30,235 nt of DNA. Origin: Myxococcota bacterium. GTDB taxonomy: Bacteria > Myxococcota_A > SURF-8 > G963663525. Positions 4,746 to 26,364 of this stretch are shown here, in pieces. The notes beneath the pieces were generated by a model. It saw only the letters and a program-made list of their open reading frames with translations. It searched no databases and was not told the DNA's origin. Location of the stretch: contig CAXXVK010000008.1 of NCBI GenBank assembly GCA_963676915.2, forward strand, positions 1-30,235, given 5' to 3'. Both the position numbers and the translations under genes were made by a program. Position 1 is the stretch's first letter. Every line of letters begins with the position of its first letter.

Positions 4746-4773
4746 GAAGAGCAGGTCACAAGACCTGCTCTTC
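4746..4773 (-). terminator. Rho-independent terminator of the hmc-rnf operon
   Basis: Perfect 12-bp stem GAAGAGCAGGTC-ACAA-GACCTGCTCTTC, 35 nt downstream of the rnfB stop, followed on the minus strand by TTGTTTGTT. Confidence 0.75.
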
Positions 4774-4807: not shown

Positions 4808-6940
4808 TCAGACCTGCGGTCCGTTTTCCTCTCCTTTGCCGAGTACCCATTCGAGGAAGTTAACCTTCTTGGGTTCACGCTGTTCGTCTTTCGAATAGCA
4901 AATGGTTCCGCATTTGAGGCAACGCTCGGCTTCGCTTGCGATTTCTTCCTGTGTCAAGGTGAATTCCACCTCGTCATAGCTGAGAATTCGTTCTGCCGGA
5001 TCGAGTTCCTTCAAGGTTACGCGGTGGTTGTTGGATTCTACACCGTTGAGATCCGCCAGTAGCGAAACGGTCATCCGATCCGTTTGCATGTTTTTCGGAA
5101 GGGTGATTTCTTCCTCGTTCAGGAAAGAGTGAATGGCGCGGGCGGCTTTACGTCCGCTACCGATGGCGGTGACGGCCAGCAAAGGACCGGTCAGGCCATC
5201 GCCCGCCGCAAAAATCTTCGGAATTCCGGTCTGGCAGGTGTCTTCGTTAGCGTCTAAGGTATTCCAACGGGTTACCACCAAGCCACGTTCTTTGAGTTCG
5301 TCCTCTACGAACGAGGCATCTACACGCTGTCCGATGGCGGCGATAATCGCATCCAGCTCGATGAATTTCTCGGAGCCTTCTTTCGGCACAGGGCGACGAC
5401 GACCGGAAGCGTCCGGTTCGCCAAGCTCCATTTCGATGACTTCCAACCCTTTCATTCGACCGTTTTCATCGGGAACGACCTTGGTTGGAGCCGTGAGGAA
5501 CATGAAATTGATGCCTTCTTCCTGCGCGGCGTGAATTTCCACCGGGTTGGCAGGCATTTCCTTCAAGGTACGACGATAAATGATGCTGACTTCTTTGGCA
5601 CCTTCGCGCAGAGCGGAACGGGATGCGTCGATAGCCGTGTTACCACCACCGATAATCGCCACGCGGTCACCGAGATCCACTTTTTCACCTTGCTCACGTT
5701 TGGCGAGGAAGTGAATGCCGCTCCATACGCCGGGAAGATCTTCGCCTTCCACACGCATCGTCGAGTTGACCCACGCACCAACCGCTACCAGCACGGCATC
5801 GTAATCGCGTTCCAGCTCACTAAGTTGGATATCTTTACCCAAACAAACGCCGGTTTTGGCTTCTACGCCCATATCGAGAATGCATTGGATGTCCCAGTCC
5901 AAAATCCGTTTGGGAAGGCGATATTCGGGAATACCGTAACGTAGCATTCCGCCTAGATGATCCTGGTTTTCGAAAATCGTGGGGCTGTGACCTAAACGAC
6001 GGAGGAAATAAGCTGCCGTCAGTCCAGCCGGACCACCACCGACGATAGCAACGCTCTTGCCGGTATCGGGCAGGCGAGGCAGTTCGAGCGGGCCATTCTG
6101 TGTGCGTTCCCAGTCGGCGACGAAACGTTTGATGGTGTTGTGGTACACCGAATCGTCTCCAATGGTGCCACGGCGGCAACCTTCTTCACAGGGAGCCGGA
6201 CAAACACGACCGCAGACGCTCGGTAGAGGGTTACGGTCTTTGATAATGGTCAATGAGGTTTCGTAATCGCCTTTGGCGGCGGCTTCCACGTAACCCTGAA
6301 TGTCGATCTGAGCCGGGCAGAGTTGACGGCAGGGAGCGAGGCATTCATCCACCGTATTGAGGTGGGTCAGGTAGGAGGACAGAGTCTGAATCTGGATAAC
6401 GTTGTGGGGACAGACCCGCACGCAAGCACCGCAACCACGACAGGCGTCTGCGTTGAATTTCGGATAGCCGTCTTCTCCCATACGGATCGCGTCAAAAGAG
6501 CAAGCCTTTACACAAGAGCCTAATCCGAGGCAACCTTGTGTACAGTTCGAATACCCTCCGAACATGTCCGCCACGGCCTGGCAATCCATCGCTCCATCGT
6601 ACAGAAATGTACTTCCAGCTCGGCGATTGCCACCACAATAAGGTTTTGCGAGTTTGGGTTCCTGTACCGTCACGGCCACCCCCATGGCAGCACCAACGGC
6701 CTTGGCCGCATCGGGACCACCGGCCACGCAGCCGTCAACAGGCGCCTCGCCCTTGACGATTGCCTCGGCCATCGATGAACACCCCGGATACCCGCATCCA
6801 CCACAGTTCGCACCGGGCAGCGCTTCCAGAACTTCATCGATCCGGGGATCGCTTTCGACGTAAAAAACCTTCGAAGCGAAGGCCAGACCGACCGCCGCGA
6901 CGAGTCCTAAAACCACCATCAACGTTGCTGCGCCTATCAT
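4808..6940 (-). CDS. rnfB: RnfB fused to a GltD/NfnB-family FAD- and NADP(H)-dependent oxidoreductase (710 aa)
   Basis: RnfB part: N-terminal TM, LPGANCGGCGYPGC, CLGLGSCVKAC, CRGCGACVRVCP. GltD/NfnB part: APCRQLCP, NPLPSVCGRVCPAPCEEGCRR, FAD motif VGGGPAG, YGIPEYRLP, nucleotide motif IGGGNTAID...IYRRT, AAGD, C-terminal EAERCLKCG. Confidence 0.93.
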   Translation of the reverse strand: MIGAATLMVVLGLVAAVGLAFASKVFYVESDPRIDEVLEALPGANCGGCGYPGCSSMAEAIVKGEAPVDGCVAGGPDAAKAVGAAMGVAVTVQEPKLAKPYCGGNRRAGSTFLYDGAMDCQAVADMFGGYSNCTQGCLGLGSCVKACSFDAIRMGEDGYPKFNADACRGCGACVRVCPHNVIQIQTLSSYLTHLNTVDECLAPCRQLCPAQIDIQGYVEAAAKGDYETSLTIIKDRNPLPSVCGRVCPAPCEEGCRRGTIGDDSVYHNTIKRFVADWERTQNGPLELPRLPDTGKSVAIVGGGPAGLTAAYFLRRLGHSPTIFENQDHLGGMLRYGIPEYRLPKRILDWDIQCILDMGVEAKTGVCLGKDIQLSELERDYDAVLVAVGAWVNSTMRVEGEDLPGVWSGIHFLAKREQGEKVDLGDRVAIIGGGNTAIDASRSALREGAKEVSIIYRRTLKEMPANPVEIHAAQEEGINFMFLTAPTKVVPDENGRMKGLEVIEMELGEPDASGRRRPVPKEGSEKFIELDAIIAAIGQRVDASFVEDELKERGLVVTRWNTLDANEDTCQTGIPKIFAAGDGLTGPLLAVTAIGSGRKAARAIHSFLNEEEITLPKNMQTDRMTVSLLADLNGVESNNHRVTLKELDPAERILSYDEVEFTLTQEEIASEAERCLKCGTICYSKDEQREPKKVNFLEWVLGKGEENGPQV

Positions 6941-6998
6941 GTGTACCTCTCGAATGCCACGTCATTTACGACGCCGCCCGAAAAGAAAATCGAACCCG

Positions 6999-7571
6999 TT
7001 AAATCATTCCTTTGAACGCGAAGAAGGTCAATGACATAAATCCTGCCGTAACCAGACCAATCGCCGTTCCCTGCAGAGGAACGGGAATCGGAGCGAACTC
7101 GAAGCGTTCGCGAATACCCGCGAAAAGGATCAACGCCAGACCGAAACCAGCAGCGGAAGACATGGAAAATACAATGTTTTCCAGCGGGCCGTGTTCGGCT
7201 TTGATACTCAGAAGAGCCGCACCAAGCACCGCACAGTTCGTGGTGATAAGCGGCAAAAAGATGCCCAGCGCCTGATACATCGCAGGAACGGCCTTTCGTA
7301 AAAACATCTCGACGAGTTGGACCAATGCTGCGATGACCAGAATAAAGGCCAGTGTCCGCAAATATTCCAACTCGAAGGGAACGAGCAGGTAGTGCTCGAC
7401 CACCCAGGCGATGAACGAGGCCAGCGTCAGAATGAACAGCACAGCTCCCGCCATACCGATCGCCGTGTCCATTTTCTTCGAAACGCCGAGAAACGGACAG
7501 TTGCCGAGGAACTGAGCCAACAGAATGTTGTTGACGAAAATGGCTCCGATGATCATCAGGAAATAATCCAT
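6999..7571 (-). CDS. rnfA: Rnf electron transport complex subunit A
   Basis: NNILLAQFLGNCPFLGVS and GIFLPLITTNCAVLG with both Fe-S-ligand Cys present; hydrophobic 190 aa protein. Confidence 0.96.
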   Translation of the reverse strand: MDYFLMIIGAIFVNNILLAQFLGNCPFLGVSKKMDTAIGMAGAVLFILTLASFIAWVVEHYLLVPFELEYLRTLAFILVIAALVQLVEMFLRKAVPAMYQALGIFLPLITTNCAVLGAALLSIKAEHGPLENIVFSMSSAAGFGLALILFAGIRERFEFAPIPVPLQGTAIGLVTAGFMSLTFFAFKGMI

Positions 7572-7637
7572 CGTTCAATTTCCCTTAATAGTAAGTGTCG
7601 TGAATCGTTGCATTTCGTTCCAATTCGGTGCTTGTTA

Positions 7638-8246
7638 TCAAGCTTTGGCCTTGGCGACTTTCGGACGCCCAAGGACGTTCATGACGCCAAGCATCAGTCC
7701 CAGGCAGACAAACGCGCCGGGGGCCTGTTGCATGAAAGAGAAGGCTTTGAAATCCGGTCCAAATACCGAGATTCCTAAAAACGTGCCGGCTCCAAGTACC
7801 TCACGCAATGCGCCCAATGCCGAAAGAGCAAGGGTGTAACCGATACCGATACCTAAACCATCGGCAGCGGATAACAACACGCCGTTTTTCCCGGCGAAAG
7901 CCTCAGCACGTCCCAGAATGATGCAGTTGACGACAATCAGCGGGATAAAGATGCCCAAGCTTTGAGAAAGCGAGAAGAAAAACGCCTTCATGAGAATTTC
8001 CACCGTCACGACGAAAGTCGCGATCACCACGATGTATGCGGCGATACGGACTTCCTTTGGGATCACCTTTCGCAACGCGCTGATCAGCATGTTGGACAGC
8101 GTAAGCACGAAAATGACCGATGCTCCCATGCCAATGGCGTTCTCGACGGAAGTCGTCACCGCCAGGGTCGGGCACAGTCCGAGAACCAACCGAAACGGCG
8201 GTATTTCTTTCCAGAGTCCCTTGGTAAATTCCTTAGTAAAACCCAT
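7638..8246 (-). CDS. rnfE: Rnf electron transport complex subunit E
   Basis: LGLCPTLAVT, IPKEVRI, GIFIPLIVVNCIILGRAEAFA and PGAF motifs. Confidence 0.96.
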   Translation of the reverse strand: MGFTKEFTKGLWKEIPPFRLVLGLCPTLAVTTSVENAIGMGASVIFVLTLSNMLISALRKVIPKEVRIAAYIVVIATFVVTVEILMKAFFFSLSQSLGIFIPLIVVNCIILGRAEAFAGKNGVLLSAADGLGIGIGYTLALSALGALREVLGAGTFLGISVFGPDFKAFSFMQQAPGAFVCLGLMLGVMNVLGRPKVAKAKA

Positions 8247-8266
8247 CGTTCGCTCCCGATTCCCGG

Positions 8267-8869
8267 TTACTTGCCTTCGGTCTTGGCTTGTTTCGCGGCT
8301 TTTAGGATTTCGTCTTTATGTTCTTTGTAAAACGTCGTACCTTGGCGAAGCGCTTCACAGACGGCGCGTGACGTTACGGTCGCACCTGAAACGGCATCGA
8401 CTTGTCCGCCATCCGCTTTTACTTTGAAAACGGTATCTTTTTTCATGCCTTTGAACTGCTTCAAAAACGAATCGTTCTTGGCACGAGTTCCGACGCCGGG
8501 CGTTTCGGACATCGTCGTGATGCCGATTCCGATCAAATCGTCCGTTTTCGTGTCGAAACCGATCATGACGCCAACATCTCCGCCAAAACCTTTACCGGAG
8601 GATTCCAAAGCGATGCCGTAAATGTCCGAGCCTTTTTTGGCAGGAAACAGCAGATGCTTGTCTTTCGGTCCCAGCTTGAGTTCGCGGCGGTCGTCGAGCA
8701 GGTTGTTATCGGCATCGGCCATAACCTTTTCGACGGCAGGCATTTTCATGTTCTGCAAAATCTGAACGTCGATACGTTCTTTGGTCCCGTTGTACAATCC
8801 ACCCAGCGCAACCCCGCTGATCAGGCAGATCAAGGACAGCGAGAGGACCATGCTGACGGCTTTAGGCAT
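8267..8869 (-). CDS. rnfG: Rnf electron transport complex subunit G (FMN-binding)
   Basis: N-terminal TM, GKGFGG, SETPGVG and intact flavinylation motif DAVSGATVTS. Start moved to ATG 8869, which has an RBS GGAGAAG. Confidence 0.93.
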   Translation of the reverse strand: MPKAVSMVLSLSLICLISGVALGGLYNGTKERIDVQILQNMKMPAVEKVMADADNNLLDDRRELKLGPKDKHLLFPAKKGSDIYGIALESSGKGFGGDVGVMIGFDTKTDDLIGIGITTMSETPGVGTRAKNDSFLKQFKGMKKDTVFKVKADGGQVDAVSGATVTSRAVCEALRQGTTFYKEHKDEILKAAKQAKTEGK

Positions 8870-9719
8870 AATTCTTCTCCATGGCAATCGGCTTGGGCTG
8901 GATGCGATCGAGCAACGGGGACAACAGGTTACCCAGCAAAACGGCGAACGGTACGACTTCCATCCAGATGCCGTAAACCCGGATCATCATTACCAGGATA
9001 CCGATAATCAATCCGTACAAAAGTTGCGGCAGTTTATTGGCCGGAGAGGTGGTGTTGTCGGTGGACAGGAAGAACAGTCCCAACATGACGTGACCGGTCA
9101 GGAGTTGTTCGAAACATGGTCCGACCGTTTCGGGATATATCTGGTGGAAAATCCCACCACTGACCATCACGCCAACGAAAAAGGCCAATGGAATCCGCCA
9201 GTTGATCCAACGGAAGAGCAGCAAAAACAGTCCACCGGCGGCCACGGCATACACGGACCAGGGATGTCCCGTGCCGATGGTTTCTCCACCGATGGGAGCG
9301 AGCATTCGGGGCCAGGACAACAACAGCATCAGATAGCCGATCAACACCGGATGGAAGGCATAACATCCCAAACCGCCGAAGATCTGTTTCGCGACCACCA
9401 CAGCTAGCGCCATTCCAAGAATCACCATAAATAACGGCACGTTGGGCGGCATCAGCAGGGTAAACAGGATACCCATGAGAATCGCGTGGCCATCCAGCGC
9501 ATAAATCGGTTGTTTGAAAACGTATTGCGTCAAGGCTTCCACAAGAACGCCGGTCACTACGGCCAGCAGCAGCACCAGAAAGGCACGCGGTCCATGCTGC
9601 CACAATGCCACCAGCACGGCGGGAGCCAGCGCCAAAGCCATCATATAATGGCTTTGCACCGTTCCTGCACCCGCTCTTAGGTGAGGAGAAGGTCCGACCC
9701 TGAGTATTTTATTCGCCAT
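8862..9719 (-). CDS. rnfD: Rnf electron transport complex subunit D (short form lacking the FMN loop)
   Basis: SPHL, DGHAILMGILFTLLMPP, AKQIFGGLG..FHP, FLSTDNTTSP and FAVLLGNLLSPLLD. Only 285 aa, with no [ST]GAT motif. Confidence 0.92.
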   Translation of the reverse strand: MANKILRVGPSPHLRAGAGTVQSHYMMALALAPAVLVALWQHGPRAFLVLLLAVVTGVLVEALTQYVFKQPIYALDGHAILMGILFTLLMPPNVPLFMVILGMALAVVVAKQIFGGLGCYAFHPVLIGYLMLLLSWPRMLAPIGGETIGTGHPWSVYAVAAGGLFLLLFRWINWRIPLAFFVGVMVSGGIFHQIYPETVGPCFEQLLTGHVMLGLFFLSTDNTTSPANKLPQLLYGLIIGILVMMIRVYGIWMEVVPFAVLLGNLLSPLLDRIQPKPIAMEKNYA

Positions 9720-9780
9720 TTCGAAACTCCCAAAGATCCGGCTTGTGAAAAAAAAGAAAAAAACCGGAGATTACGGAATG

Positions 9781-11016
9781 TTATTCGCTTTTCGCCAAAT
9801 GTTTTTTACCCATCGTGAACCACTGCTTCAACGGTCTGTAACTTGGACAGACATAAGTGCACAGGCCGCACTCGATGCAGTAATCCAGCGTTGCAACTTC
9901 TTCGTAGCGTCCGTACTCGCAATATCGCCCCATCTCCTGCGGCTGCAATCGCGCCGGACAAACGGCAGTACATGCACCGCAATTGACACAGGGTCGCGAC
10001 CGAAACTCGTCATGTTCGGCGGCGGGAATCACCGTGAGGCCGTCCATTCCAGCCAATACGGGGGTGTTGGGATCGAATTGCGCAAGTCCCGACATGGAGC
10101 CACCGAACAGCAGACGATCCCCGGATTCGTAAGCGATTCCGGCTTGCTTCAAGACATCACCGGCACGGGTTCCGACCAGAACGCAAAGGTTCTTTTTGGA
10201 ACCATCACGCCCCACGACCGTCAGATCACAGAAACGCGGCAGGACGCCTTTGGTGATAATCGAATGGAAAGCCAACGCGAGATGTACCGAAATGACGGAG
10301 ATTTCGCCGTTTCCACCTTGATTCGCCATCGCGGTCTTGATCAGGCGATCGAAGGAGGTGGGGTATTTGTCATCCAGTTCCAGAGATCCCGTACCGAGCG
10401 CTTTGAATTCGTCCGATACTGCTTTCGGCAATGCAAAGCGGATCTGGCTGGCACCGAACAGCTTTTTGACGGTTTCGGCGGCAACTTGCAACTCTTCCAG
10501 ACTTTCACGACTGCGTTGCACTCTTGCCGTCAGTCCGATGTCGATATCCGCCCCACTGATCACCAGGATATCCGCCTTCGGATTGCTTCCGTCGGCCCAG
10601 GGGAAACCGGCATCGAAGGAAAATCCGGCCAGTGTAGCCGGAAGTCCCGCCTTGCGGATCTGATCCCATAACGCTTCGGAATCATTGGATTCCACCGGAT
10701 CGATTCCGGGTTCATCCTGTTGCGCGTTTTCGGGAACGATGCGCAGCACGGGAACGGCACGCAATCCCGTGGGATAGGGAGCCACCGTGATTTCTTCGAT
10801 TTTGCCGCTCACCGGACATCGAAGCTCGTGGCCTTCTTCTCCTGCGACGACGACTCCGGCTTTGACGGTTTCGCCTTTATCGACCACTGGAGACAGAATT
10901 TCTCCATCGTTTCCAACCAGCGGGAAAAGAATCTCACCCACCAGATAGGTTTCGAAGGCCGATTTCTCGCACGAAAGGTGTAACGTTCTTTTTTTCTGCT
11001 CGCCGAACCATCCCAT
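9781..11016 (-). CDS. rnfC: Rnf electron transport complex subunit C, divergent
   Basis: Position at head of rnfCDGEAB; N-terminal VDKGETVKAG...CPVSGKI, KYP, VLVGT...GGSMSG, and two ferredoxin motifs CVNCGACTAVCP and CIECGLCTYVCP. Confidence 0.88.
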   Translation of the reverse strand: MGWFGEQKKRTLHLSCEKSAFETYLVGEILFPLVGNDGEILSPVVDKGETVKAGVVVAGEEGHELRCPVSGKIEEITVAPYPTGLRAVPVLRIVPENAQQDEPGIDPVESNDSEALWDQIRKAGLPATLAGFSFDAGFPWADGSNPKADILVISGADIDIGLTARVQRSRESLEELQVAAETVKKLFGASQIRFALPKAVSDEFKALGTGSLELDDKYPTSFDRLIKTAMANQGGNGEISVISVHLALAFHSIITKGVLPRFCDLTVVGRDGSKKNLCVLVGTRAGDVLKQAGIAYESGDRLLFGGSMSGLAQFDPNTPVLAGMDGLTVIPAAEHDEFRSRPCVNCGACTAVCPARLQPQEMGRYCEYGRYEEVATLDYCIECGLCTYVCPSYRPLKQWFTMGKKHLAKSE

Positions 11017-11069: not shown

Positions 11070-12926
11070 TTACAGGGGCAACGCCTCGGCATCGTTCATG
11101 TTTTCGTAAACCGGAAGTCCGAATTCCTCGTGACAGCCCGCACACAGCGTCTTACGCACATCCTTGTAGGCCGGAAGTCCCAGACCCTCCCGCATATGGC
11201 AGGCTCCGCAATGGCCGGGATCGACGGAAGACGGACGGCAATCGTCCACGCTGTGGCTTTCGTCGCATTCCATGACTTTGGGAAGCTGACGCAAACGCGA
11301 TTGGACGTTTTCGGGCTGTTTCATATTGTGGTGACAGTCCATGCAGGGGAAGCCCGCCTGATCGACGTGCACCCGGTGGACCGCAGTGGCATCTCTGCCA
11401 AGTGCCGACGCTGTGGGTAACGATTTCTGCACGATGGAAGTCAGAAGTCGCGTTTCCGCCTCGTCTTTCTCGCCGGATTCCAGGGTACGTTTCGCACGTT
11501 CCCTCTGAGCGAGAGCCTCTTTGCGGGCCTGCGGATAGGCATGACATCCACGGCAGGTCTGCGGTCCCTGCTTGCGTTCTGTGTGACAGTCCTGACAGAC
11601 TTTGTGCAAGGCGTTTTCCATCGCCAGCGGATTGTGTTTTTCGAGGAACAGCTTGTTGGTCGATGCGAAATCGCCGCTCACAGGATCGATGTGGCAGGCT
11701 TCGCAGGTTTCGACTTTCAGCTTTTCTTCGTCGATTTGTTCGTGACATTTCGCGCAAAGTTCGTGTGAAACCTGTTTTAATTCCACAGCGCTTTTCACCG
11801 TGTGGTCCAGGTGACATTCACGGCAGCTACGTTTTTGTTCGCGATCAGCGTCTTCATGGTGACAATGCTGGCAATCCACACCAGCGCCGATGGCGTGGGC
11901 ATCGTGTGTCCAGTTAACCATTCCGAAACTTGCAGGATGCGAATGCGCCGCTTCACGGTGACAGTCGTTGCAAGTAACGGGCATGTCAGAATCGAGGTCC
12001 GGGTTGTCGAAATCGTGGCAATCGAAACAGCGCGAATGCAGGGCGGTTTTCCGTGCCGGAACGGCTTTTCCGGACTTGGTGCGTCCTACGGTGGCTTTAT
12101 GACATTCGCCGCAACGTCTATATTCCTGCGGATTCGCTTTGTCGTCTTCCATATGATGGCAAGTTCGGCAAGTGTAGTCCTTGCCGTCGTAATCCATATA
12201 TTCCAGGTGATGTGCACGATGATCCCAGGCGACTTCACCGGAAAAACCTTTGAATAACGGATCGTGATTGAAAGCGGTTTCGTTTTCCGTTTCGCGGTGA
12301 ATCACGCCGTCATGGCATTCGTCGCATCGGTCCCATTCGCCATCGGCGGGCAGTTCCGTAGGTTGACCTTCGATGTGGCAACGAACGCAGGCAATGGTCT
12401 GTTCCCAAGCATAATGACGGTGTTCGAGAGGTGTTGCACCTCCATCGGAGAGCATTTTGGACTGGTGGCAGTCCCGGCACTGGGTCGGACCTTCGCCTAC
12501 GGCTTGGTGACATCCCGCGCATTTTTTATGAAACGCGACGCGACGGTCTGCGGGCAGGTGCGCGCTTTCAACATCCTTGCCGTGTTCCTTGGCCCAGTCG
12601 GCATAGTCGCTTTTCCGCTCGGTTTCTTCCATTTTAGCATTCGGCTTGGCAGGAAACACAGAGTCTCCAAGCACCCGATGCTTGTGGCAATCCGAGCAGG
12701 CTTGCATGTCGCTGTCACCGGTTTTCGAGGTGTGGTGGCAGACTTGGCAGTTGGCGACGGCTTCCCGAGCGTGCAATGTATGACTCCACGGGACATCGCC
12801 GAAACGGTTGGCCAGAGTCTCATCTGAATCATCGGATGCGAGGAGACTGGCTCCCAACGCACTTAGAAACAGAAAGACGCAAATGACGGACAACCAGAAG
12901 AGCTGGTAGGTTTTGATCGGTTTCAA
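11070..12926 (-). CDS. Periplasmic class III (c3-type) multiheme cytochrome c with 19 CxxCH motifs, Rnf-associated
   Basis: Signal peptide MKPIKTYQLFWLSVICVFLFLSALGASLLA; 19 CxxCH counted by hand; repeated c3 motifs GxVxWxHxxH...CxxCHH; TTG start with GGAG RBS. Confidence 0.92.
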   Translation of the reverse strand: MKPIKTYQLFWLSVICVFLFLSALGASLLASDDSDETLANRFGDVPWSHTLHAREAVANCQVCHHTSKTGDSDMQACSDCHKHRVLGDSVFPAKPNAKMEETERKSDYADWAKEHGKDVESAHLPADRRVAFHKKCAGCHQAVGEGPTQCRDCHQSKMLSDGGATPLEHRHYAWEQTIACVRCHIEGQPTELPADGEWDRCDECHDGVIHRETENETAFNHDPLFKGFSGEVAWDHRAHHLEYMDYDGKDYTCRTCHHMEDDKANPQEYRRCGECHKATVGRTKSGKAVPARKTALHSRCFDCHDFDNPDLDSDMPVTCNDCHREAAHSHPASFGMVNWTHDAHAIGAGVDCQHCHHEDADREQKRSCRECHLDHTVKSAVELKQVSHELCAKCHEQIDEEKLKVETCEACHIDPVSGDFASTNKLFLEKHNPLAMENALHKVCQDCHTERKQGPQTCRGCHAYPQARKEALAQRERAKRTLESGEKDEAETRLLTSIVQKSLPTASALGRDATAVHRVHVDQAGFPCMDCHHNMKQPENVQSRLRQLPKVMECDESHSVDDCRPSSVDPGHCGACHMREGLGLPAYKDVRKTLCAGCHEEFGLPVYENMNDAEALPL

Positions 12927-13141: not shown

Positions 13142-14314
13142 TCAGTGATGATCCGCGTAATCAGGATGATCGTAGAAAATCGGCATGTGTGTCACGATGA
13201 ATTTGAAGGCCAACACGCCCGCCGTTATGAGGAACAGCGTGGTGCAAATCTCCATCCAGTGCGGGACATACCGTTCATCGGCTGGCAGGTTGTAGTTGAA
13301 AGCAATCAACGACACGTTGAGCCGATTGAAAACGATACCCAACACGGTGATCAGCGCGGTAACGCGAATCAGCGTGAGGTTCTTTTCACGTCGTCCGATA
13401 GCATACAAGAACGACGGCAGCGCTACAAAGCCAAGCAGTTCGACCAGGAACAGATGTCCATAAGGTGTATTGAGCAGGTGCCATTCGTTGTCCAGCGCGA
13501 TACCGATGACTTTCAGTGCGAAATATCCGGCCAACACCCAGGACGCCGCCTTGGCAAAGCCCAACGTGACTTCATCGAATTCTTGGTGATGATGGTGATC
13601 GATGCGGTCTTTGTAGAAATGATGCGACAATGCACCCTCGAACATCACCATCGAAAGACCTGCCGCGATACTCGAAATAAAGAAGTACAGTGGCAAATAA
13701 GGCGAATACCAGAGCGGATGTAGTTTCGTTGGAGCGATCAGGTACATGGCCCCTAGTGAAGATTGGTGCAACGTGGAGAGAATCACGCCGAAAATCGTCA
13801 GCACGATGGTCAGTTTCACGATGAGGTTGCGCAGTTTCTTGAATCCGAGCCATTCGAGCGGCGCCGGGCTGAATTCGAGGAACAATACCGTCAGGTACAA
13901 TGCCACGCAGGCAGCTACTTCGAACATAATCGATGTAGGACCGGCCTGAATGATGAAAGGATACGGCAAACGCCAGGGGCGACCGACATCGTACAGCAAA
14001 GCGATCGGCACCAGGGCATAGCCCAAAAAGCCTGTCAGAATCGCAGGACGTACGGCGGAATGGTACTTTTTCATACCGAAAATATAGACACCCGCCGACG
14101 TGGTGTAGCCACCTGCGGCGAGCGCAACGCCGGTAAGCAGGTCGAAGCCGATCCACAATCCCCATGGGTTGTTGCTGTCGAGGTTCGTCACTGCGCTGAG
14201 TCCAAGGCCGAAACGCATAGCGGTCAGCACCAATCCAAGAAGGATGATGAGTCCGGCCACGATGTTGAACGGCGTGAAAATCGTGCTTTTCTGGGTCGGG
14301 TTTACTACGGCCAT
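13142..14314 (-). CDS. hmcC: HmcC, NrfD/HybB-family integral membrane subunit
   Basis: RFGLGLSAVTNL...PWGLWIGFDLLTGVALAAGG, DVGRPWRLPYP, SIMFEV, LSTLHQSSLG, KLHPLW; about 10 TM segments. Confidence 0.93.
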   Translation of the reverse strand: MAVVNPTQKSTIFTPFNIVAGLIILLGLVLTAMRFGLGLSAVTNLDSNNPWGLWIGFDLLTGVALAAGGYTTSAGVYIFGMKKYHSAVRPAILTGFLGYALVPIALLYDVGRPWRLPYPFIIQAGPTSIMFEVAACVALYLTVLFLEFSPAPLEWLGFKKLRNLIVKLTIVLTIFGVILSTLHQSSLGAMYLIAPTKLHPLWYSPYLPLYFFISSIAAGLSMVMFEGALSHHFYKDRIDHHHHQEFDEVTLGFAKAASWVLAGYFALKVIGIALDNEWHLLNTPYGHLFLVELLGFVALPSFLYAIGRREKNLTLIRVTALITVLGIVFNRLNVSLIAFNYNLPADERYVPHWMEICTTLFLITAGVLAFKFIVTHMPIFYDHPDYADHH

Positions 14315-15381
14315 TACACGTTCTCCTTAGCCTGTTCCTTGAACTTGGCTTCAGCTTCCGTTACCGCCTTCTTGACCGCCTTGGCCGTTTCGGATTCGGC
14401 GCGTTTCTTGGCTTTTTCCAGTTCCTGTTTCAGTTTTTCCTCGCCTTTGCCTTGGGTTTCGGCAACAGCTTTGGCAACGGCTTCTCGCTGTTCTTTGGCG
14501 GCGATTTTCTCTTTTCGCTTATTGATGGCATAGACGCCGGTCAGCAGAACCGGCCATGCTCCGACAACCGCCGGAACCACAGCCAAAGCACCACCGGTCA
14601 ATTCGGACGGCGGATGGTGAGGAACGTTCATCGGCAGGTTGATCTGGTCGAAAGGAACGCCCGACAAAAACAGCCAGTTCGTTCCGGACAGTTCGTTTTC
14701 GCCGTAAATATGGTCGATGTAGCGATCCGGGTGCTTTTTGATGCGTTCGCGTGCGATTTTCAACAAGTCTTCACGTGTGCCGAACGTCAGGGCTTCCATC
14801 GGGCAGGCTTCCACACAGCCGGGTTTGAGTCCCTTTTTGATGCGCGGATGACACATCGTACAACGGACCACCACCGGATCGAAAGCACTGTCATAGGCAT
14901 AGGCGGGCATACTCCAGGGGCAGGCCAGCAAGCAATAACGACATCCTACGCAGACGTCAGGGTTGTAAAGGACCGCGCCTTCGGGAGTTTTTGTAAAGGC
15001 GTTGACGAAACAGGCCGAAGCGCAGGCGGGTTCCTGACAATGATGACATTGTTGTTTACGGAACACCGGACCGTAACCGGGAACTTCGTACTGATTCACG
15101 ACGGTAAACACATTCGTTTTCGTTCGTCGTTTCTTTTTCAGCACCGTCAGATCGTCGAATGGTACATCCGGTTTCGGTTGCTTGTTGACTTCGTTGCAAG
15201 CCGCCTCGCAGGATCGGCATCCTACGCAAAGCGTGGTATCGTGCAACACGCCATACGCCCCCGGATAGCCCTCGTAATGCTTGTGTTGGGCCAGGGCTTT
15301 TTTGCTTCCGACGGTCGCGGCGGCGGTTCCGGCACCTGCCGCCGTGAGAAACTTCAGGAATTTCCTGCGCGATACTGACAT
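14314..15381 (-). CDS. hmcB: HmcB, Tat-exported 4x[4Fe-4S] protein with C-terminal TM helix and coiled-coil tail
   Basis: Tat motif SRRKFLK; [43 protein letters not shown]...PGCVEACP; HIYGENE; TM helix then Lys/Ala/Glu-rich tail. Confidence 0.93.
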
Positions 15382-15413: not shown

Positions 15414-17006
15414 TTAATGTACCGCGGCTTCCGACTTTTCGTTATGGCACTGCACGCAGTTCATCGGTTGAGCGATGTCCATTTGTTCGTGACAGCCGAT
15501 ACATTGCTGATGATAAGCGCCTTTCAGTCCTGGACCGAAGAGGTTTTCCTCGCTACGGCCATCTTTGTCATGACAATTCACGCACATCGGCGGTTTTTGT
15601 CCGACCGGAGAGTGGTGATGACATCCGGCGCAGAGAGTATCCTCACCGCCATGGAAGAACTTCGCCATACGGCTGCCGTTGATTCCTTTTCGCAGAGCTT
15701 CGATAATTTGCCGATGCGGGAATACCGAAGGTCCGTACTTGTTTTCAAGGATATCGATTGTCACTTCATTGGGAATTTCGTTCGAAGCGAACGTAAACGC
15801 CTGATAAGGAGCCTGTTCGGGATTGTAATCCGCCATGACGGATTTTTAACAGGTTGCTGCTCGCCGTTTTCTTCGGCTGTTTCCGCTGGTGTTTCAGTGG
15901 TAGGCGGTTCGAAGTGGCATTTCGTGCAGGCATTGTCAGGCAACCGGGCAAAACTCATGAACATGTGGGCACCCGGCGCATTCTTTTTCTTTTTTGTATT
16001 TGTTGTGGCATCCGACGCAGCTTTGCTCGGCGGAGAAGGCATGGAAAGCTGTTTCGAGATTGGCCTTTTTGCCTTTGTAATTTCCTTTGATCGTATGGCA
16101 TTCGTTGCAAGCACGCATCGTGTCGTGATGGCAATCCCGGCAACGCCCGGTATAACGCTCATGTCCCTTATGATTGAAAGGTACGGGGAGCATTCTGGTA
16201 TGGTCTTTGTCTTTTTCGGAAGGAGTCAGCCACGCAACGTCCGGTTGCTCGCCGCTCAGACGCAGTCGAGGAGTGCGAGCCAGTTTCTTGATTTTGGAAA
16301 TATTTTCCGCTTTGTGGCACCCGGCGCAATTGATAGGACCGCTGGAAAGGTTCTGTGACGCTCGGTTCATGTGGCAGGTTACACAAGCCCAGTGAGAAGC
16401 GGTTTTCATCGAAGCCGGTTGGCCTTTTCCACCCGCCTCGTGGCAGTCGCGACAGTTGGACTCGGTTCCTTTTTTGTAGGAAATTCCCTGGCTTGCGTCA
16501 TCGTAGCTGTGGTGGCACTTGCCGCAATCGGAATTCATTTCCTTAATGTGTCGAGCGTGCAGAGATAAATCCATAGGCATCAGTACGCGGTTGGACGTGT
16601 ATTCCGGTTGAACGGCATGGCATTCACCACAAACGACAGGTCCGCTTTCCTTGCCTTGGGCTTTGAGTTCCTTATGGCAGCCTTGGCAATTCGAGTGGAA
16701 ATGATCCATCATCGACTCTTTGTCGGGACCGTCTTTGAGACGCAGGAATTTTTGAGAAAGATACTTTTCGCCCTGTTTGTGACAGGTTTGGCAGTTTTTC
16801 CCCAATTTTTCCAGGGCTTCAGTGTGCTGGTCGTGACCGAACTGCACCGTCGGGCGTTCGAGATCGCCGAATTGCTTCAACGTATCGATCGTCAGCAGAT
16901 CCCAACGTTCGTCTCCGTCATCGTCGGCCCAACAAATGCCTACAGATAGACTTAGAAGCATAAGAACCAGTCCCAACCTGCCTGCCATGTAAACCTTTTC
17001 CCGCAT
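15414..17006 (-). CDS. hmcA: HmcA high-molecular-weight 16-heme cytochrome c (two compensating frameshifts, at ~15968 and ~15845)
   Basis: Joining ORFs 15936-17024, 15761-16162 and 15414-15836 gives 16 CxxCH (the 11th, CAGCH, is restored by removing the extra C), with signal peptide, [27 protein letters not shown] and [10 protein letters not shown]. Start ATG 17006 or 16988. Confidence 0.9.
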
Positions 17007-17273
17007 AGTACTTACCCTGCACAAGGTTGATGTCCGTTTTCCGCATAGTTCGCAAAAACGAACCGTTGCATGACTTTCACGTACTCATCGATAGGGTCAT
17101 AAACAATTTTCGCGATAAAATACAGAAAGGCGAAATCCATCAAGAGGTTTCGTTACAATCGAACGAACCTATAGGACAACGGCCCCCCTGTTTACCGCTG
17201 GAATGTCTTTATTCAGTTTATAATCCTCAGAACACAGTTTCGTGACCTATCAACGTCATCGTTTGCCGTGAAA

Positions 17274-18995: not shown

Positions 18996-19529
18996 ATGGC
19001 CACCGGGAAACGAACAAACTGGGCTGATTTGAACTACGAAGATAACGAAACTCTCGCGTATGCGATTTTACGTTGTGATCTTCCTGAAATTGCACGTCTG
19101 CTGGCTGGCGGAACGGTCAATCCCAACTGGATTTCCGAAAAGCACCGGATGCCTCACCTGAGTCTTGCTGCATATTCCGGGGATTTGTTGGCTGCCCAAA
19201 TGTTGGTCGAGCACGGCGCTTTGGTCAATATGGCGGCGGAAAACGGTTCCACGCCGTTGATGATCGCCGCGCAAAAACGCCATGGCCAGATCGTGAAATA
19301 TCTGCTTTCATGCGGAGCCAACGTCAACGATGTTTCCAAAAATGGCATGACGGCTTTGATGTGCGCCTCGAAAAAGGGCTATCAGGATGTTGTCGATCTA
19401 CTGCTTCATTCAGGGGCCGATTCCCACCTCAAAATGAAAGCCGGTTTCACGGCCAAGGATTTTGCTCGTGTCAACGGGCATTACCACTTGATTCAGCTTT
19501 TCGAGAGAACGCCCGGAAGTCGTAACTAA
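18996..19529 (+). CDS. Ankyrin repeat protein
   Basis: Ankyrin consensus repeats: HLSLAAYSGDLLAAQMLVEHGALVN, GSTPLMIAAQKRHGQIVKYLLSCGANVN, GMTALMCASKKGYQDVVDLLLHSGAD, GFTAKDFA. Confidence 0.92.
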   Translation: MATGKRTNWADLNYEDNETLAYAILRCDLPEIARLLAGGTVNPNWISEKHRMPHLSLAAYSGDLLAAQMLVEHGALVNMAAENGSTPLMIAAQKRHGQIVKYLLSCGANVNDVSKNGMTALMCASKKGYQDVVDLLLHSGADSHLKMKAGFTAKDFARVNGHYHLIQLFERTPGSRN

Positions 19530-21302: not shown

Positions 21303-21671
21303 TTAGGGACTCGTAACAGCTGATTTATTGGCGGAAGGGTCGGGGATGTAAACCACTTCGCCATTGGGGAGGCGATAGGCGACTCCCAGCCTTTTTCCAC
21401 TGCCGCCGACTTCCTCTTCCGTCATGCGCAGACGTTCAATTTTGACGCCTTTTTTCATGATGATTTCCATATTGGCTTTTCCCGGATTCTTCACGATGGC
21501 GAAATCGTCGGGAGAAGCGAGCAATTCGGGAACGCTTAACGCGGTGAACATCGCAAGAATCAGCGCTACGGCGAAAACCATGGCGACATCGAACAGATTG
21601 GCCACTGCGCCCAAGGGATCTTCCTCCGGTGCTCCCAGTAGATTTCGGTAGCGGCGCGGCGCATGGTTCAT
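21303..21671 (-). CDS. DUF2149 family membrane protein (HmuV-like)
   Basis: EEDPLGAVANLFDVAMVFAV...KNPG..MEII.KKG...GKRLGVAYRLPNGEVVYIP. Start moved to ATG 21671, which forms an ATGA overlap with the upstream stop. Confidence 0.88.
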   Translation of the reverse strand: MNHAPRRYRNLLGAPEEDPLGAVANLFDVAMVFAVALILAMFTALSVPELLASPDDFAIVKNPGKANMEIIMKKGVKIERLRMTEEEVGGSGKRLGVAYRLPNGEVVYIPDPSANKSAVTSP

Positions 21672-22264
21672 GATTGAGGTTCCTTCAACAGCGTATCGCA
21701 AAGGCTTTCGATATCCGCGATGTCACGTGCATACCAGTGCTGACGAAGCGTCAGCATGACATAGCACAGTAGACCCACGAATAAACCCACTACCGTAGTG
21801 CTGAAGGCAATCACGAGATCGTTGGACATCACCGTCAGATTGCCTTTCGAAATGTTCATCAATGCCGGTCCCATCGGGATCAACGTCCCCATCAGTCCCA
21901 ACACCGGTCCAAGCCGTAACCCGATTCGCACCGGTAAAATTCGGCGGGCTGCACCGAATTCCGCTTCCTGAAGGAGTCGTTGCAATCGTGCTTCCTCAAA
22001 AGGGGGGGCGGTTTTTGCGATATTCGTCACGAATCTCCCCACGAGCGGCATGAGAACGGAGGAAGAGGGCAGGTTGGCTTTTTCCAGACTGAGCGACAAC
22101 GCTTCAGTGTGGCGGGACGCATTCCTTTTGCGTTCAAGCACTTCCCGTAAAAAACCACCGAATTCGTACAACGCCCAGATCAATGCCAGCAACACTCCGA
22201 CAATAACAGGCATTTTGAGCGATACCGTAATCGCGTAAAGAATTTCAACCGCTTGTTCGATCAT
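21668..22264 (-). CDS. MotA/TolQ/ExbB proton channel family protein (HmuU-like)
   Basis: RLGPVLGLMGTLIPMGPAL...LVIAFSTTVVGL...WYARD; translationally coupled to both neighbours. Confidence 0.9.
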   Translation of the reverse strand: MIEQAVEILYAITVSLKMPVIVGVLLALIWALYEFGGFLREVLERKRNASRHTEALSLSLEKANLPSSSVLMPLVGRFVTNIAKTAPPFEEARLQRLLQEAEFGAARRILPVRIGLRLGPVLGLMGTLIPMGPALMNISKGNLTVMSNDLVIAFSTTVVGLFVGLLCYVMLTLRQHWYARDIADIESLCDTLLKEPQS

Positions 22265-26286: not shown

Positions 26287-26364
26287 AAGACCCCGATTTC
26301 GTTGTATTTACCTCACTGCCCGCATAGCGAACAGTGAGGTTTGTATTTGGCTTGGTACCTATTG

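Follow-up and report, generated by a model that had tools for sequence, protein, structure and literature searches.

An Rnf2-type operon of a Myxococcota bacterium with replaced FMN/NADH motifs in RnfC and a GltD/NfnB-like module fused to RnfB

The operon and its neighbourhood

The window analysed here is a stretch of 30,235 nucleotides from a Myxococcota bacterium (assembly GCA_963676915.2, contig CAXXVK010000008.1, positions 1 to 30,235 of the forward strand). All six rnf genes lie in one cluster (4808-11016), with the gene for a 19-haem cytochrome ahead of them, and the full operon reads hmcA-like, hmcB, hmcC, 19-haem cytochrome, rnfC, D, G, E, A and rnfB; its genes are co-directional, with gaps of at most 215 nt. 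A canonical rnfCDGEAB is present elsewhere in the same genome, and the operon described here is a paralogue of that classical Rnf. Its features, in the direction of reading, are as follows.

15414..17024, minus strand: hmcA-like multihaem cytochrome, two ORFs split by in-frame stops (362 aa with 10 CXXCH; 140 aa with 4 CXXCH)
14314..15381, minus strand: hmcB, periplasmic Fe-S subunit, 355 aa (NF045715, 482.4 bits, cut-off 420; twin-arginine leader SRRKFLK, C-terminal TM helix)
13142..14314, minus strand: hmcC, NrfD-type integral membrane quinone-interacting subunit, 390 aa (NF045714, 653.7 bits, cut-off 550; PF03916; nine hydrophobic segments)
11070..12926, minus strand: 19-haem c-type cytochrome, 618 aa, with an N-terminal signal or anchor (19 CXXCH; one N-terminal hydrophobic segment; PF02085 and related families)
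9781..11016, minus strand: rnfC, Rnf2 type, 411 aa, a single uninterrupted ORF (Pfam, NCBIfam, PDB alignments, AF2, Foldseek, dN/dS)
8862..9719, minus strand: rnfD, 285 aa, a short form without the covalent-FMN threonine loop (PF03116, 233.8 bits; alignment to 9eri_D)
8267..8887, minus strand: rnfG, 206 aa, one N-terminal TM helix (PF04205, 61.6 bits; TM scan)
7638..8246, minus strand: rnfE, 202 aa, both conserved Cys present (LCPT, NCII; PF02508, 215.8 bits)
6999..7571, minus strand: rnfA, 190 aa, both conserved Cys present (NCPF, NCAV; PF02508, 194.8 bits)
4808..6940, minus strand: rnfB fused to a GltD/NfnB-like module, 710 aa (Pfam, NCBIfam, PDB matches, Cys map)
4746..4773, minus strand: terminator-like hairpin of 12 pairs, 7 of them G-C, with a T-rich tail, 35 nt past the rnfB-gltD stop

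The cytochrome gene directly upstream of rnfC has homologues adjoining 11 of the 21 loci at which we found the RnfB fusion. The two pieces of the hmcA-like gene match NF045713 at 345.1 bits (profile positions 35-370) and 162.1 bits (413-541), each under 400, and the counterpart in a genome of the same genus is one 589-aa ORF with 16 CXXCH. The hairpin after rnfB-gltD likely marks the end of the operon; since terminator-like sites in the region (21, versus 17.6 in shuffles) are not above chance, it is only the position of this hairpin that is suggestive. A search for the Rex operator TTGTGAN6TCACAA with up to two mismatches returned 2 matches, a number within chance expectation, and neither lies near the operon; the promoter scan gave no signal above shuffles.

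This arrangement is already known, and the operon is a further member of a described type. A large RnfB together with an RnfC that lacks its usual domains has been published as the “Desulfobacula toluolica Tol2-type” or Rnf2 complex (PMC5109826, where Doerries et al. 2016 cite Woehlbrand et al. 2016, Proteomics 16:973; PMC11887813). The complex has been described from sulfate-reducer genomes, and the Rnf2 proteins of D. toluolica and D. multivorans share 41-84% identity among themselves. As described there, the Rnf2 type resembles the present operon in a large RnfB (about 700 aa; 710 aa here) that has gained an NAD-binding part, in an RnfC without the Complex1_51K and SLBB domains, in a cytochrome gene within the cluster, and in the presence of an Acetobacterium woodii-type Rnf1 in the same genome. 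It differs in that its cytochrome is a 15-kDa protein rather than a 19-haem one and that hmcA-like, hmcB and hmcC stand directly upstream only here; moreover, the nearest named locus to ours is a “Myxococcota bacterium” and not a member of the Desulfobacteraceae.

Flavin and NADH motifs of RnfC

A preliminary description of this gene held that RnfC has lost its FMN/NADH-binding signatures while keeping both [4Fe-4S] clusters, and proposed an alignment with the RnfC structures of A. woodii, Clostridium tetanomorphum and Azotobacter. We compared the motifs residue by residue in phmmer alignments to these three solved chains (9eri_C of A. woodii, E 1.7e-28; 7zc6_C of C. tetanomorphum, 1.8e-26; 8ahx_C of A. 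vinelandii, 4.7e-25).

10600..10650, minus strand: former Gly-rich FMN/NADH loop, residues 123-139, AGLPATLAGFSFDAGFP (aligned to AGIVGLGGATFPTHVK of 9eri_C; pLDDT <50 at 130-136)
10531..10563, minus strand: former NGAECEPY motif, residues 152-162, VISGADIDIGL (opposite VLNGAECEPYL)
10348..10368, minus strand: former KYPQGxE motif, residues 217-223, KYPTSFD (opposite KYPQGAE)
10087..10104, minus strand: former GGPMMG motif, residues 305-310, GGSMSG (opposite GGPMMG)
9844..9990, minus strand: ferredoxin domain with two CxxCxxCxxxCP motifs, CVNCGACTAVCP (residues 343-354) and CIECGLCTYVCP (380-391) (ORF, Pfam)

In all three alignments, the quoted strings stand opposite the canonical motifs, so the replacement of the four FMN/NADH motifs is borne out, as are the intact state of both cluster motifs and the uninterrupted 411-aa frame on the minus strand. 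The change goes beyond drift, because neither Complex1_51K (PF01512) nor SLBB (PF10531) is found in this RnfC by Pfam at E<=0.01, the canonical RnfC of the same genome, run as a control, matches them at 170.3 and 46.3 bits, and the rnfC model TIGR01945 stays below its cut-off of 245.95 at about 161-162 bits (160.8-161.8). NF003454 likewise reaches 140.6 bits against a cut-off of 345, and the NqrA model NF003761 gives 35 bits against 450.

In the AF2 model (pLDDT 90.2), the RnfC fold is kept: the best Foldseek matches are 9eri_C, 8ahx_C and 7zc6_C (E 2.8e-28 to 1.9e-25; TM 0.79-0.83), and the match to full-length NqrA chains of the NQR complex is weaker (TM 0.65-0.69). Low confidence is confined to residues 1-4 and, as the sole internal stretch, to residues 130-136 of the former Gly loop. 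The gene is under purifying selection, with a dN/dS of 0.075 overall and 0.014 in the ferredoxin domain, its most constrained part, both measured against the same-genus genome.

How far does this hold for the family? The alignment that we used comprises 54 members, seven of them with all three canonical motifs. The eight cluster Cys are invariant in all 54, diverse as the family is, which argues for a working electron relay over a mere scaffold, all the more as NqrA has lost its clusters. In a comparison of canonical with variant RnfC, the ECEP columns read E100 C100 E97 P100 in the former versus D90 R23 D51 P57 in the latter, where the mean frequency of the top residue is 0.42-0.49 in the ECEP, YPQGxE and Gly-loop windows and 0.78 at GGPMMG; the YP of KYPQGxE and the GG..G are retained. 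PF01512 matches 22 of the 54 members (E<=0.001), and in the two relatives tested, a D. piger RnfC and one RnfC linked to an RnfB fusion, the match begins past the Gly-loop part.

Taken together, the motifs and the model support the view that this RnfC would be unable to hold FMN or NAD(H) in a NuoF-type pocket and would still carry two [4Fe-4S] clusters. The further claim of the preliminary description, that the protein no longer reacts with NAD(H) and serves as a structural or Fe-S relay subunit, gains support of the same sequence- and model-based kind from the motifs, the invariant Cys and the constraint on the ferredoxin domain; for the Tol2-type RnfC, the same conclusion is already in print (PMC5109826). 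Where that description spoke of signatures that the gene “has lost,” the absence stands and the loss in this gene does not, the tree placing it as a trait of a large and old clade: in the FastTree cluster that contains the Rnf2-type RnfC, at least 119 of 126 rows, each a representative at 50% identity, are without the motifs.

The fused RnfB, the RnfD anchor site and their co-occurrence

The preliminary description overlooked two features of the neighbouring genes, namely, an NAD(P)H module fused to RnfB and a matching loss of the flavin anchor in RnfD. The RnfB fusion consists of a TM anchor, a PF04060 [4Fe-4S] domain (residues 41-72), a dicluster ferredoxin domain (Fer4, 135-183), Fer4_20 (PF14691, 201-281), a PF07992 part (296-596) and a C-terminal CxxCxxxC, and it contains the nucleotide sites GGGPAG (FAD) and GGGNTAID...YRR (NAD(P)H). 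NF009410 matches at 530.3 bits, above its cut-off of 516, and rnfB models match too. Among solved structures, 9bov_A is matched by residues 198-683 (4.8e-132) and the NfnA chain of NfnABC by residues 178-608 (9n5u_A, 1.5e-128); other matches are StnC (8oh5_C), NfnB (4ylf_B, 4e-98), 5jca_L (7.9e-94) and RnfB itself (9eri_B, 2.9e-47). The domain and structure matches thus place a complete GltD/NfnB-like FAD, NAD(P)H and Fe-S module behind the Fe-S domains of RnfB, in a gene with a dN/dS of 0.025. A complex prediction of RnfC with residues 190-710 of the RnfB fusion (score 0.00, mark 0.32, “no answer”) speaks neither for nor against docking.

The sites that bear on flavin binding in the membrane subunits are these.

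9258..9302, minus strand: RnfD residues 140-154, LAPIGGETIGTGHPW, the sole remnant at the site of the (S/T)xATPL flavin anchor and periplasmic loop (alignment)
8378-8389, minus strand: RnfG SGAT, residues 167-170, with the covalent-FMN threonine kept (alignment, Thr column)

In A. woodii RnfD, T156 carries the covalent FMN, and D249 and N123 are the published riboflavin ligands (PMC11889175). The alignment of our RnfD leaves out residues 142-189 of the 9eri_D chain, resuming at 190 after 141; this stretch contains T156, and the Thr column is a gap; by this alignment, RnfD is without the threonine for covalent FMN. D249 is retained and N123 is His here. By sequence, the Cys pairs for the membrane [2Fe-2S] are still present in RnfA and RnfE, as is the FMN threonine in RnfG.

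These traits travel together, in counts that are not independent trials, since the fusion loci are kin and were found with queries from the same family: all 18 RnfC encoded beside an RnfB fusion (5 loci of one set and 13 of the 14 phylum loci holding rnfC, the 14th being a likely duplicate counted once) are without the Gly-loop, ECEP and GGPMMG patterns, and the flavin threonine of RnfD, scored like that of RnfG by alignment column, is present in 0 of 19 fusion-linked proteins (12 gap, 3 A, 4 D) versus 11 of 11 beside a canonical RnfC. The RnfG threonine is retained in 20 of 20. An ORF with at least three CXXCH occurs in all 5 fusion loci of the first set and in 11 of the 16 phylum loci, versus 0 of 13 loci with a canonical RnfC; the 5 of 16 phylum fusion loci without a cytochrome within the fetched range comprise three short contigs and two full 20-kb stretches. 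Of the 21 fusion loci, 6 contain an HmcB-like and 5 an HmcC-like gene, and the gene order takes two forms. Apart from periplasmic cytochromes and HmcBC, no partner gene was found conserved beside the fusion operons among the loci examined. Fusion relatives at 51-76% identity are plentiful. Among the Rnf subunits, RnfC shows the lowest identity from locus to locus, 30-42% versus 61-86% for RnfA and RnfE.

Possible electron paths and known relatives

The complex shares with canonical Rnf (9eri, 7zc6, 8ahx) its six homologous subunits and the order rnfCDGEAB, the fold and two [4Fe-4S] clusters of RnfC, the first cluster domain of RnfB, the FMN threonine of RnfG and the Cys pairs of RnfA/E. It departs from canonical Rnf in an RnfC without the FMN/NADH pocket, an RnfD without the covalent-FMN site, and an RnfB that carries a GltD-like NAD(P)H flavoprotein in place of the polyferredoxin end. 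A precedent for such a division of labour is Na+-NQR, where NqrA is a cofactor-less homologue of RnfC and NADH enters on another cytoplasmic subunit (PMC12174285, PMC9588780, PMC11889175). In the Vibrio cholerae enzyme, as would be the case here, the RnfC homologue is not NADH-reactive, and an NADH flavoprotein on another cytoplasmic subunit feeds the membrane [2Fe-2S]. However, NqrA is without Fe-S clusters whereas the Rnf2-type RnfC keeps both, NqrB keeps the covalent FMN that the Rnf2-type RnfD does not, and the input module is the FNR-like NqrF there and GltD-like here, so that any likeness between NQR and Rnf2 would be convergent. We considered Rnf2 as an evolutionary intermediate to NQR and rejected the idea, because NqrB keeps the flavin threonine that is missing from the Rnf2-type RnfD.

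Two further systems bear on the fate of the electrons. Methanosarcina acetivorans has an NAD-independent Rnf, whose RnfG has been proposed to feed cytochrome c, and in its published description it makes no use of NAD(P) at RnfC and is co-transcribed with a multihaem cytochrome c, MmcA (PMC4023990), two traits that the complex here would share. Its donor is ferredoxin and its RnfB is ordinary; according to a preprint (10.1101/2022.07.20.500911), RnfB, D, G and C all retain their known cofactor sites. Another parallel is the rnfCDGEAB(F) of the Desulfovibrionaceae with its decahaem DhcA: RnfC is without Gly loop and ECEP in 62 of 62 loci and falls in the same large tree cluster as the Rnf2-type RnfC, the flavin threonine of RnfD is missing as in the Rnf2 type (Asp in its place in 58 of 59 loci), and a multihaem cytochrome stands upstream. 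In contrast to the Rnf2 type, RnfB is ordinary there, with 279-322 aa in 48 of the 50 loci in which RnfB was found and no NAD(P)H module; no homologue of HmcB or HmcC was found in the 62 loci.

Based on the replaced motifs, kept fold and purifying selection of RnfC, the RnfB fusion and its co-occurrence with a flavin-less RnfC, the loss of the RnfD anchor, the cytochrome neighbourhood, the operon layout and the published precedents, we posit that the ORF at 9781..11016 encodes subunit C of a Tol2-type (Rnf2) complex that handles NAD(P)H at RnfB and passes electrons to periplasmic cytochromes and HmcBC, with RnfC as a cap blind to NAD(H); we hold this reading to be fairly probable. In this model, RnfB would be the side on which NAD(P)H is oxidised or produced, a role that falls to NqrF in Na+-NQR, and electrons would run from FAD through the RnfB Fe-S chain to the [2Fe-2S] of RnfA/E, in the ion-coupled step, and on to the FMN of periplasmic RnfG. 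From there, the most likely recipients would be the periplasmic multihaem cytochromes encoded in the operon and the HmcBC quinone module, or else the whole path would run in reverse; a return via RnfD to RnfC would be the less favoured route. RnfC would then cap RnfD on the cytoplasmic side in the manner of NqrA, but with its ferredoxin domain retained, and its clusters would either have a structural role or form a side branch leading to a further partner. Counted against this reading are the invariant Cys of RnfC and the kept riboflavin ligand D249, as well as the interrupted hmcA, the 5 of 16 phylum loci without a cytochrome, and the operon cytochrome dhcA of D. alaskensis, an organism with a related flavin-less RnfC, which is without a fitness phenotype (PMC4215793).

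The published view of the Tol2-type complex (PMC5109826, PMC11887813) keeps the U-shaped path of Rnf: electrons of NAD(P)H at the RnfB fusion would travel via RnfA/E, RnfG and the riboflavin of RnfD, without the covalent FMN, to the clusters of RnfC and a cytoplasmic acceptor or donor, with ferredoxin, a DsrC- or Hdr-type protein or another partner docking on the remodelled RnfC. The Cys that are invariant in 54 of 54 family members and the dN/dS of 0.014 in the ferredoxin domain speak for such a path, and since the riboflavin ligand Asp (D249) is kept in RnfD, a D-to-C step via riboflavin is still conceivable. We nevertheless regard it as rather unlikely: all solved Rnf and Nqr structures have a flavin that bridges RnfG and the riboflavin, and its anchor is present in 0 of 19 fusion-linked RnfD; among the loci examined, the only conserved genes beside the operon that could encode a partner are those for periplasmic cytochromes and HmcBC; and the former pocket of RnfC is variable within the variant family, which speaks against one common new ligand. 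The same pocket might be thought to bind flavin and NAD(H) in a remodelled form invisible to sequence motifs, given the kept fold, the PF01512 matches in 22 of 54 members and the retained YP and GG..G. With the Gly-rich loop replaced or deleted, the acidic/Cys motif ECEP gone, the AF2 model disordered exactly at the former loop, and a dedicated NAD(P)H module added to the complex, this is very improbable.

The module itself invites another reading. The FAD of NfnB in NfnAB bifurcates, and the GltD/NfnB-like FAD here could do likewise, splitting the electrons of NADPH between the RnfB Fe-S chain and the adjoining clusters of RnfC, which would make Rnf2 a membrane-coupled bifurcating enzyme. NfnB of NfnAB is indeed among the close solved relatives of the module (4ylf_B and 5jca_L). 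Its relatives also include the NADP(H) modules of two transhydrogenases, Stn and NfnABC, in both of which, as a point against bifurcation, the GltD-like module is a non-bifurcating NADP(H) site. RnfB and RnfC are adjacent in solved Rnf (PMC9588780), yet their nearest clusters are 25 to >30 Å apart there (PMC9588780, PMC11889175); we consider bifurcation improbable. Least credible of all is that rnfC is a functionless, decaying duplicate of the canonical gene. A canonical copy does exist in the genome, and RnfC is the least conserved subunit, but the uninterrupted ORF, the dN/dS of 0.075 and the large old clade, with its at least 119 motif-less representatives at 50% clustering, stand against decay. 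A pseudogene reading of rnfC was rejected on dN/dS and distribution, as far as such data reach.

What does this window add to the consulted passages of the Rnf2 papers (PMC5109826, PMC11887813), which make no mention of the loss of the RnfD flavin anchor? First, flavin-less RnfC, loss of the RnfD anchor and GltD fusion are strictly linked; second, multihaem cytochromes and quinone modules of the HmcBC type recur in the neighbourhood; third, the type occurs outside the named Desulfobacteraceae. From these three together follows a concrete predicted reaction, the ion-coupled transfer of electrons from NAD(P)H to cytochrome c or menaquinone. We speculate further, and only tentatively, that Rnf2 and the flavin-less “Rnf” of the Desulfovibrionaceae are half-loop pumps and not ferredoxin:NAD+ oxidoreductases, having shed both flavins of the RnfD-RnfC return arm. 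Electrons would then run from a cytoplasmic donor, which here is NAD(P)H via the GltD module and in Desulfovibrio is ferredoxin, by way of RnfA/E and the FMN of RnfG to periplasmic multihaem cytochromes and the menaquinone pool. If true, a sodium- or proton-pumping NAD(P)H dehydrogenase would have been invented anew in cytochrome-rich anaerobes, independently of NQR but along similar lines.

Automatic annotation of such operons as “Rnf electron transport complex” leads metabolic models to insert a ferredoxin:NAD+ pump. Judging by the replaced motifs, a ferredoxin:NAD+ reaction at the RnfC of the Rnf2-type operon is very unlikely, and the same would extend to the motif-less family, that is, to 119 of 126 rows of one tree cluster. 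According to PMC11887813, Rnf2 belongs to the core genome of the Desulfobacteraceae and is abundant in the six strains studied; what this complex actually catalyses therefore matters for models of how carbon and sulfur are turned over in the sea.

The replaced flavin site of RnfC

The ORF at 9781..11016 (minus strand) is single and, as the preliminary description held, uninterrupted; it encodes 411 aa (ORF listing), and RnfC chains are its sole strong matches in a phmmer search of all PDB chains. In phmmer alignments with the RnfC structures of Acetobacterium woodii (9eri_C; 1.7e-28), Clostridium tetanomorphum (7zc6_C; 1.8e-26) and Azotobacter vinelandii (8ahx_C; 4.7e-25), all four strings quoted in that description lie exactly opposite canonical motifs. 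The two CxxCxxCxxxCP motifs that it reported intact are both there, at residues 343-354 and 380-391.

Motif sites of the window RnfC, each with the canonical string that it faces (phmmer alignment)
Gly-rich loop: AGLPATLAGFSFDAGFP facing AGIVGLGGATFPTHVK
NGAECEPY site: VISGADIDIGL facing VLNGAECEPYL
KYPQGxE site: KYPTSFD facing KYPQGAE
GGPMMG site: GGSMSG facing GGPMMG

For the roles of individual residues in these motifs, we presume those in NuoF. Since published work, in the portions used here, divides RnfC into a NuoF-like FMN domain and a ferredoxin domain (PMC9588780, PMC12174285, PMC11889175), the four motifs are read as the builders of the FMN/NADH site. Pfam finds in the window RnfC only 4Fe-4S families and an RnfC_N match below threshold (23.7 versus 25.6 bits), with neither Complex1_51K nor SLBB, and its TIGR01945 score of 161.8 bits falls short of the 245.95 cut-off. 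As a control, the other RnfC of the genome, on contig C33, matches Complex1_51K (170.3 bits, profile positions 1-149 of 150), SLBB (46.3 bits) and RnfC_N (106.8 bits).

Judging by its predicted structure, conservation and selection, the protein is real and folded. An alignment of 54 rows, with all eight cluster cysteines invariant (54/54), served to build the AlphaFold2 model, which has a mean pLDDT of 90.2 and a pTM of 0.90; residues 130-136, the former Gly loop, are the only internal stretch with pLDDT <50. Foldseek ranks five RnfC chains at the top (E 2.8e-28 to 1.9e-25, TM 0.79-0.83), followed by NqrA chains (TM 0.65-0.69, full-length chains of the NQR complex) and then NuoF-like subunits. 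Comparison with the counterpart in G018, a genome from the same genus (86% protein identity), gives dN/dS values of 0.075 over the full gene, 0.014 in the ferredoxin domain and 0.079 in what was the flavin domain, ratios that are rough because dS is about 1.2, near saturation.

The operon and its fused RnfB

The gene rnfC is the sixth of 11 co-directional genes separated by gaps of at most 215 nt. Past the last stop codon lies a hairpin of 12 pairs followed by a T-rich tail, the total count of such sites being not above chance.

Genes of the operon, from its upstream end (minus strand)
15936-17024 and 15414-15836: two ORFs jointly matching HmcA (profile positions 35-370 and 413-541)
HmcB: 482.4 bits, over the cut-off of 420
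HmcC: 653.7 bits, over the cut-off of 550
Cytochrome of 618 aa: 19 CXXCH and a signal/anchor
rnfC, rnfD, rnfG, rnfE and rnfA, then the 710-aa RnfB

The hmcA-like gene is broken at 15836-15965. Its two ORFs share a frame and lie about 100 nt apart with three in-frame stops between them; the shifted frame stays open across the gap and holds one more CXXCH, and a CxxCPH right before the first stop resembles a haem motif with one surplus base in the C run. The G018 counterpart is a single 589-aa ORF with 16 CXXCH (L135:173-1942, minus strand). The interruption reflects either a pair of indels that compensate each other, making this a pseudogene, or a mistake in the assembly.

Residues 1-190 of RnfB are RnfB proper, with a transmembrane helix, the PF04060 cluster domain and a dicluster domain (9eri_B, 2.9e-47). 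Residues ~196-684 form a GltD/NfnB-like module (PF14691, PF07992, GGGPAG, GGGNTAID, YRR), and the fusion scores 530.3 bits on NF009410, over the cut-off of 516. The closest solved relatives of the module include 9bov_A (4.8e-132), the NfnA chain of T. sibiricus NfnABC (1.5e-128), StnC of S. ovata (5.4e-119) and NfnB of T. maritima (4e-98). A C-terminal CxxCxxxC (C674, C677, C681; residues 674-681, window 4898-4921) is invariant in 48/48 fusions and, in the alignment to the longer 9bov_A, falls where the next Fe-S domain of that protein begins; it may be an extra cluster ligand or a docking element.

RnfD is short (285 aa). Because its alignment to the A. woodii chain covers residues 6-141 and then 190-303, it skips the loop with T156, the covalent-FMN site in the portion of PMC11889175 used here. 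As for the published riboflavin ligands of RnfD, D249 is retained (STDN) and N123 is replaced by His. RnfG retains SGAT, and RnfA and RnfE retain their Cys pairs.

Elsewhere, the genome carries a second, canonical rnfCDGEAB cluster (C33:21598-27505, partly covered by locus L001), whose RnfC exceeds the TIGR01945 cut-off (537.3 bits), whose RnfD has TTATPLG and whose RnfB has 302 aa. Immediately upstream of that cluster are two more ORFs, 379 and 153 aa long. Based on dsrA (C53:41538-43780; 567.9 bits, over the cut-off of 392.85) and an adjoining dsrB-like ORF, the organism is predicted to have dissimilatory sulfite reductase and thus to be of the sulfate/sulfite-reducer type. Two further features lie in the window, the first of which looks like a metal or corrinoid uptake/chelation cluster with no relation to the Rnf finding; ankyrin-repeat proteins are uncommon in bacteria.

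21668-28635, minus strand: MotA/ExbB-family protein, 1341-aa CobN/Mg-chelatase homologue (864.5 bits) and TonB-dependent receptor
18996-19529, plus strand: ankyrin-repeat protein of 177 aa

Relatives of the variant RnfC and its partners

A word-based search gave four close relatives of the window RnfC (86, 42, 41 and 34% identity), none of the four with PF01512 on record, and 6073 of 1.84 billion representatives matched at E<=0.001 in a profile search. A set of 183 proteins was used, 182 of which became rows of a FastTree phylogeny (midpoint root; SH-like supports, no bootstrap); 130 of the 182 have none of three motif patterns. One cluster (support 97) holds 126 rows, 119 of them motif-less, and the canonical rows form the other, weakly resolved part of the tree. 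The window RnfC belongs to a clade of 11 rows (support 100) nested in a 45-row clade (support 99), in which every row of known context is fusion-linked, that is, found beside a fused RnfB. Other parts of the 126-row cluster contain another fusion-linked group, of 7 rows, and the Desulfovibrionaceae rows.

Column conservation in RnfC (%); the ECEP and YPQGxE columns are independent of the pattern that defined the groups, and the Gly-loop row is circular because that loop defined them
Canonical (n=43): E100 C100 E97 P100; Y95 P100 Q62 G100 .. E100
Variant (n=107): D90 R23 D51 P57; Y85 P97 N20 G31
Cluster Cys columns: 100 in both groups

RnfB fusions are common: the best 120 matches are 47-76% identical and 651-738 aa long, nearly all with PF04060, PF14691 and PF07992 (one was seen without PF04060), and 17 of 401 sampled genomes of the phylum have a near-full-length match.

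Co-occurrence at fusion-linked loci; the counts are a pattern, not independent trials, because the loci are related to one another and were found through queries taken from this same family
rnfC upstream of the fusion: 14/16 fetched phylum loci; the contigs of the other two end before it
RnfC without motifs: 13/13 aligned phylum loci (an apparent duplicate of locus L009 counted once) and 5/5 titled loci, all fusion-linked
T at the RnfD flavin-anchor column: 0/19 (12 gap, 3 A, 4 D), versus 11/11 with canonical RnfC
RnfG flavin threonine retained: 20/20
ORF with at least 3 CXXCH: 5/5 and 11/16, versus 0/13 with canonical RnfC
HmcB-like gene: 6/21
HmcC-like gene: 5/21

In the genus of the window, the HmcBC-like genes are placed upstream of rnfC; in others, they come downstream of rnfB. 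Two loci (L124:14033-15943, L125:9428-11371) encode, downstream of rnfB, an NrfD/HmcC-like membrane subunit of 636-647 aa carrying 5 CXXCH, an apparent cytochrome-NrfD fusion.

Proposed electron path and kinship with published Rnf types

As read from sequence, each cofactor site of the complex is demonstrably present or absent, and RnfC very probably does not react with NAD(H). We posit that NAD(P)H would react instead at the GltD-like FAD of the RnfB fusion, where we take the YRR motif to suggest NADPH. The Fe-S domains of the same polypeptide would wire this FAD to the RnfA/E [2Fe-2S] center, from which electrons would pass to RnfG-FMN in the periplasm; in the A. woodii work, the [2Fe-2S] step is coupled to Na+ transfer (PMC11889175, in the part used here). 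Because RnfD-FMN and RnfC-FMN are jointly missing, and because the operon is accompanied by periplasmic cytochromes and an NrfD-type quinone module, electrons would exit or enter on the periplasmic side. In this model, the complex would be an ion-coupled NAD(P)H:cytochrome c/menaquinone oxidoreductase, or work in reverse. The redox potentials are about -320 mV for NADPH and about -75 mV for menaquinone, a driving force that would be enough for the proposed reaction.

We regard this reading, taken as a whole, as somewhat favored. A published alternative is that RnfC still passes electrons on to a cytoplasmic partner, and a relay of this kind agrees better with the strictly conserved RnfC clusters, which are the weak point of the periplasmic reading; we consider the cytoplasmic relay rather unlikely. 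The proposed periplasmic path mirrors two known systems: NQR, in which the RnfC homologue NqrA carries no cofactor and NqrF is the entry point of NADH (PMC12174285, PMC9588780 and PMC11889175, as far as used here), and the Rnf of M. acetivorans, in which RnfG is proposed to feed cytochrome c (PMC4023990).

In the sections of the two papers drawn on here, Desulfobacula toluolica Tol2 has a different Rnf type with an RnfB of ~700 aa that contains NAD+-binding sites and an RnfC lacking the Complex1_51K and SLBB domains, the mode of action of this type still awaiting verification; D. multivorans carries Rnf1 and Rnf2, with five Rnf2 subunits detected under all conditions and a small cytochrome encoded within the rnf2 cluster (Doerries et al. 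2016, PMC5109826); and Rnf2 belongs to the Desulfobacteraceae core genome and is abundantly and constitutively formed (Sci Adv 2025, PMC11887813). Thus, the RnfC of the preliminary description is a further case of a described Rnf kind. Those sections do not mention RnfD anchor loss or HmcBC linkage, and we claim no novelty for either.

The Desulfovibrionaceae, Mailhella and Bilophila loci (L014-L058, L060-L074, L076, L085) have an RnfC without Gly loop, ECEP and GGPMMG in 62/62 cases (e.g., Desulfovibrio piger, L053:9530-10873) and Asp at the covalent-FMN threonine column of RnfD in 58/59. RnfB in these loci is of the ordinary kind, and 58/62 of them contain a cytochrome ORF with three or more CXXCH (mostly 10). 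Desulfovibrio Rnf has been treated as a ferredoxin:NADH oxidoreductase (PMC4215793) and, in the part of PMC11887813 used here, as "Rnf1"; in D. alaskensis, vesicle tests for ion gradients driven by Fd-to-NAD+ electron transfer "have been unsuccessful" (PMC4841214). It may be necessary to re-examine the Fd:NAD+ role that textbooks assign to Desulfovibrio Rnf.
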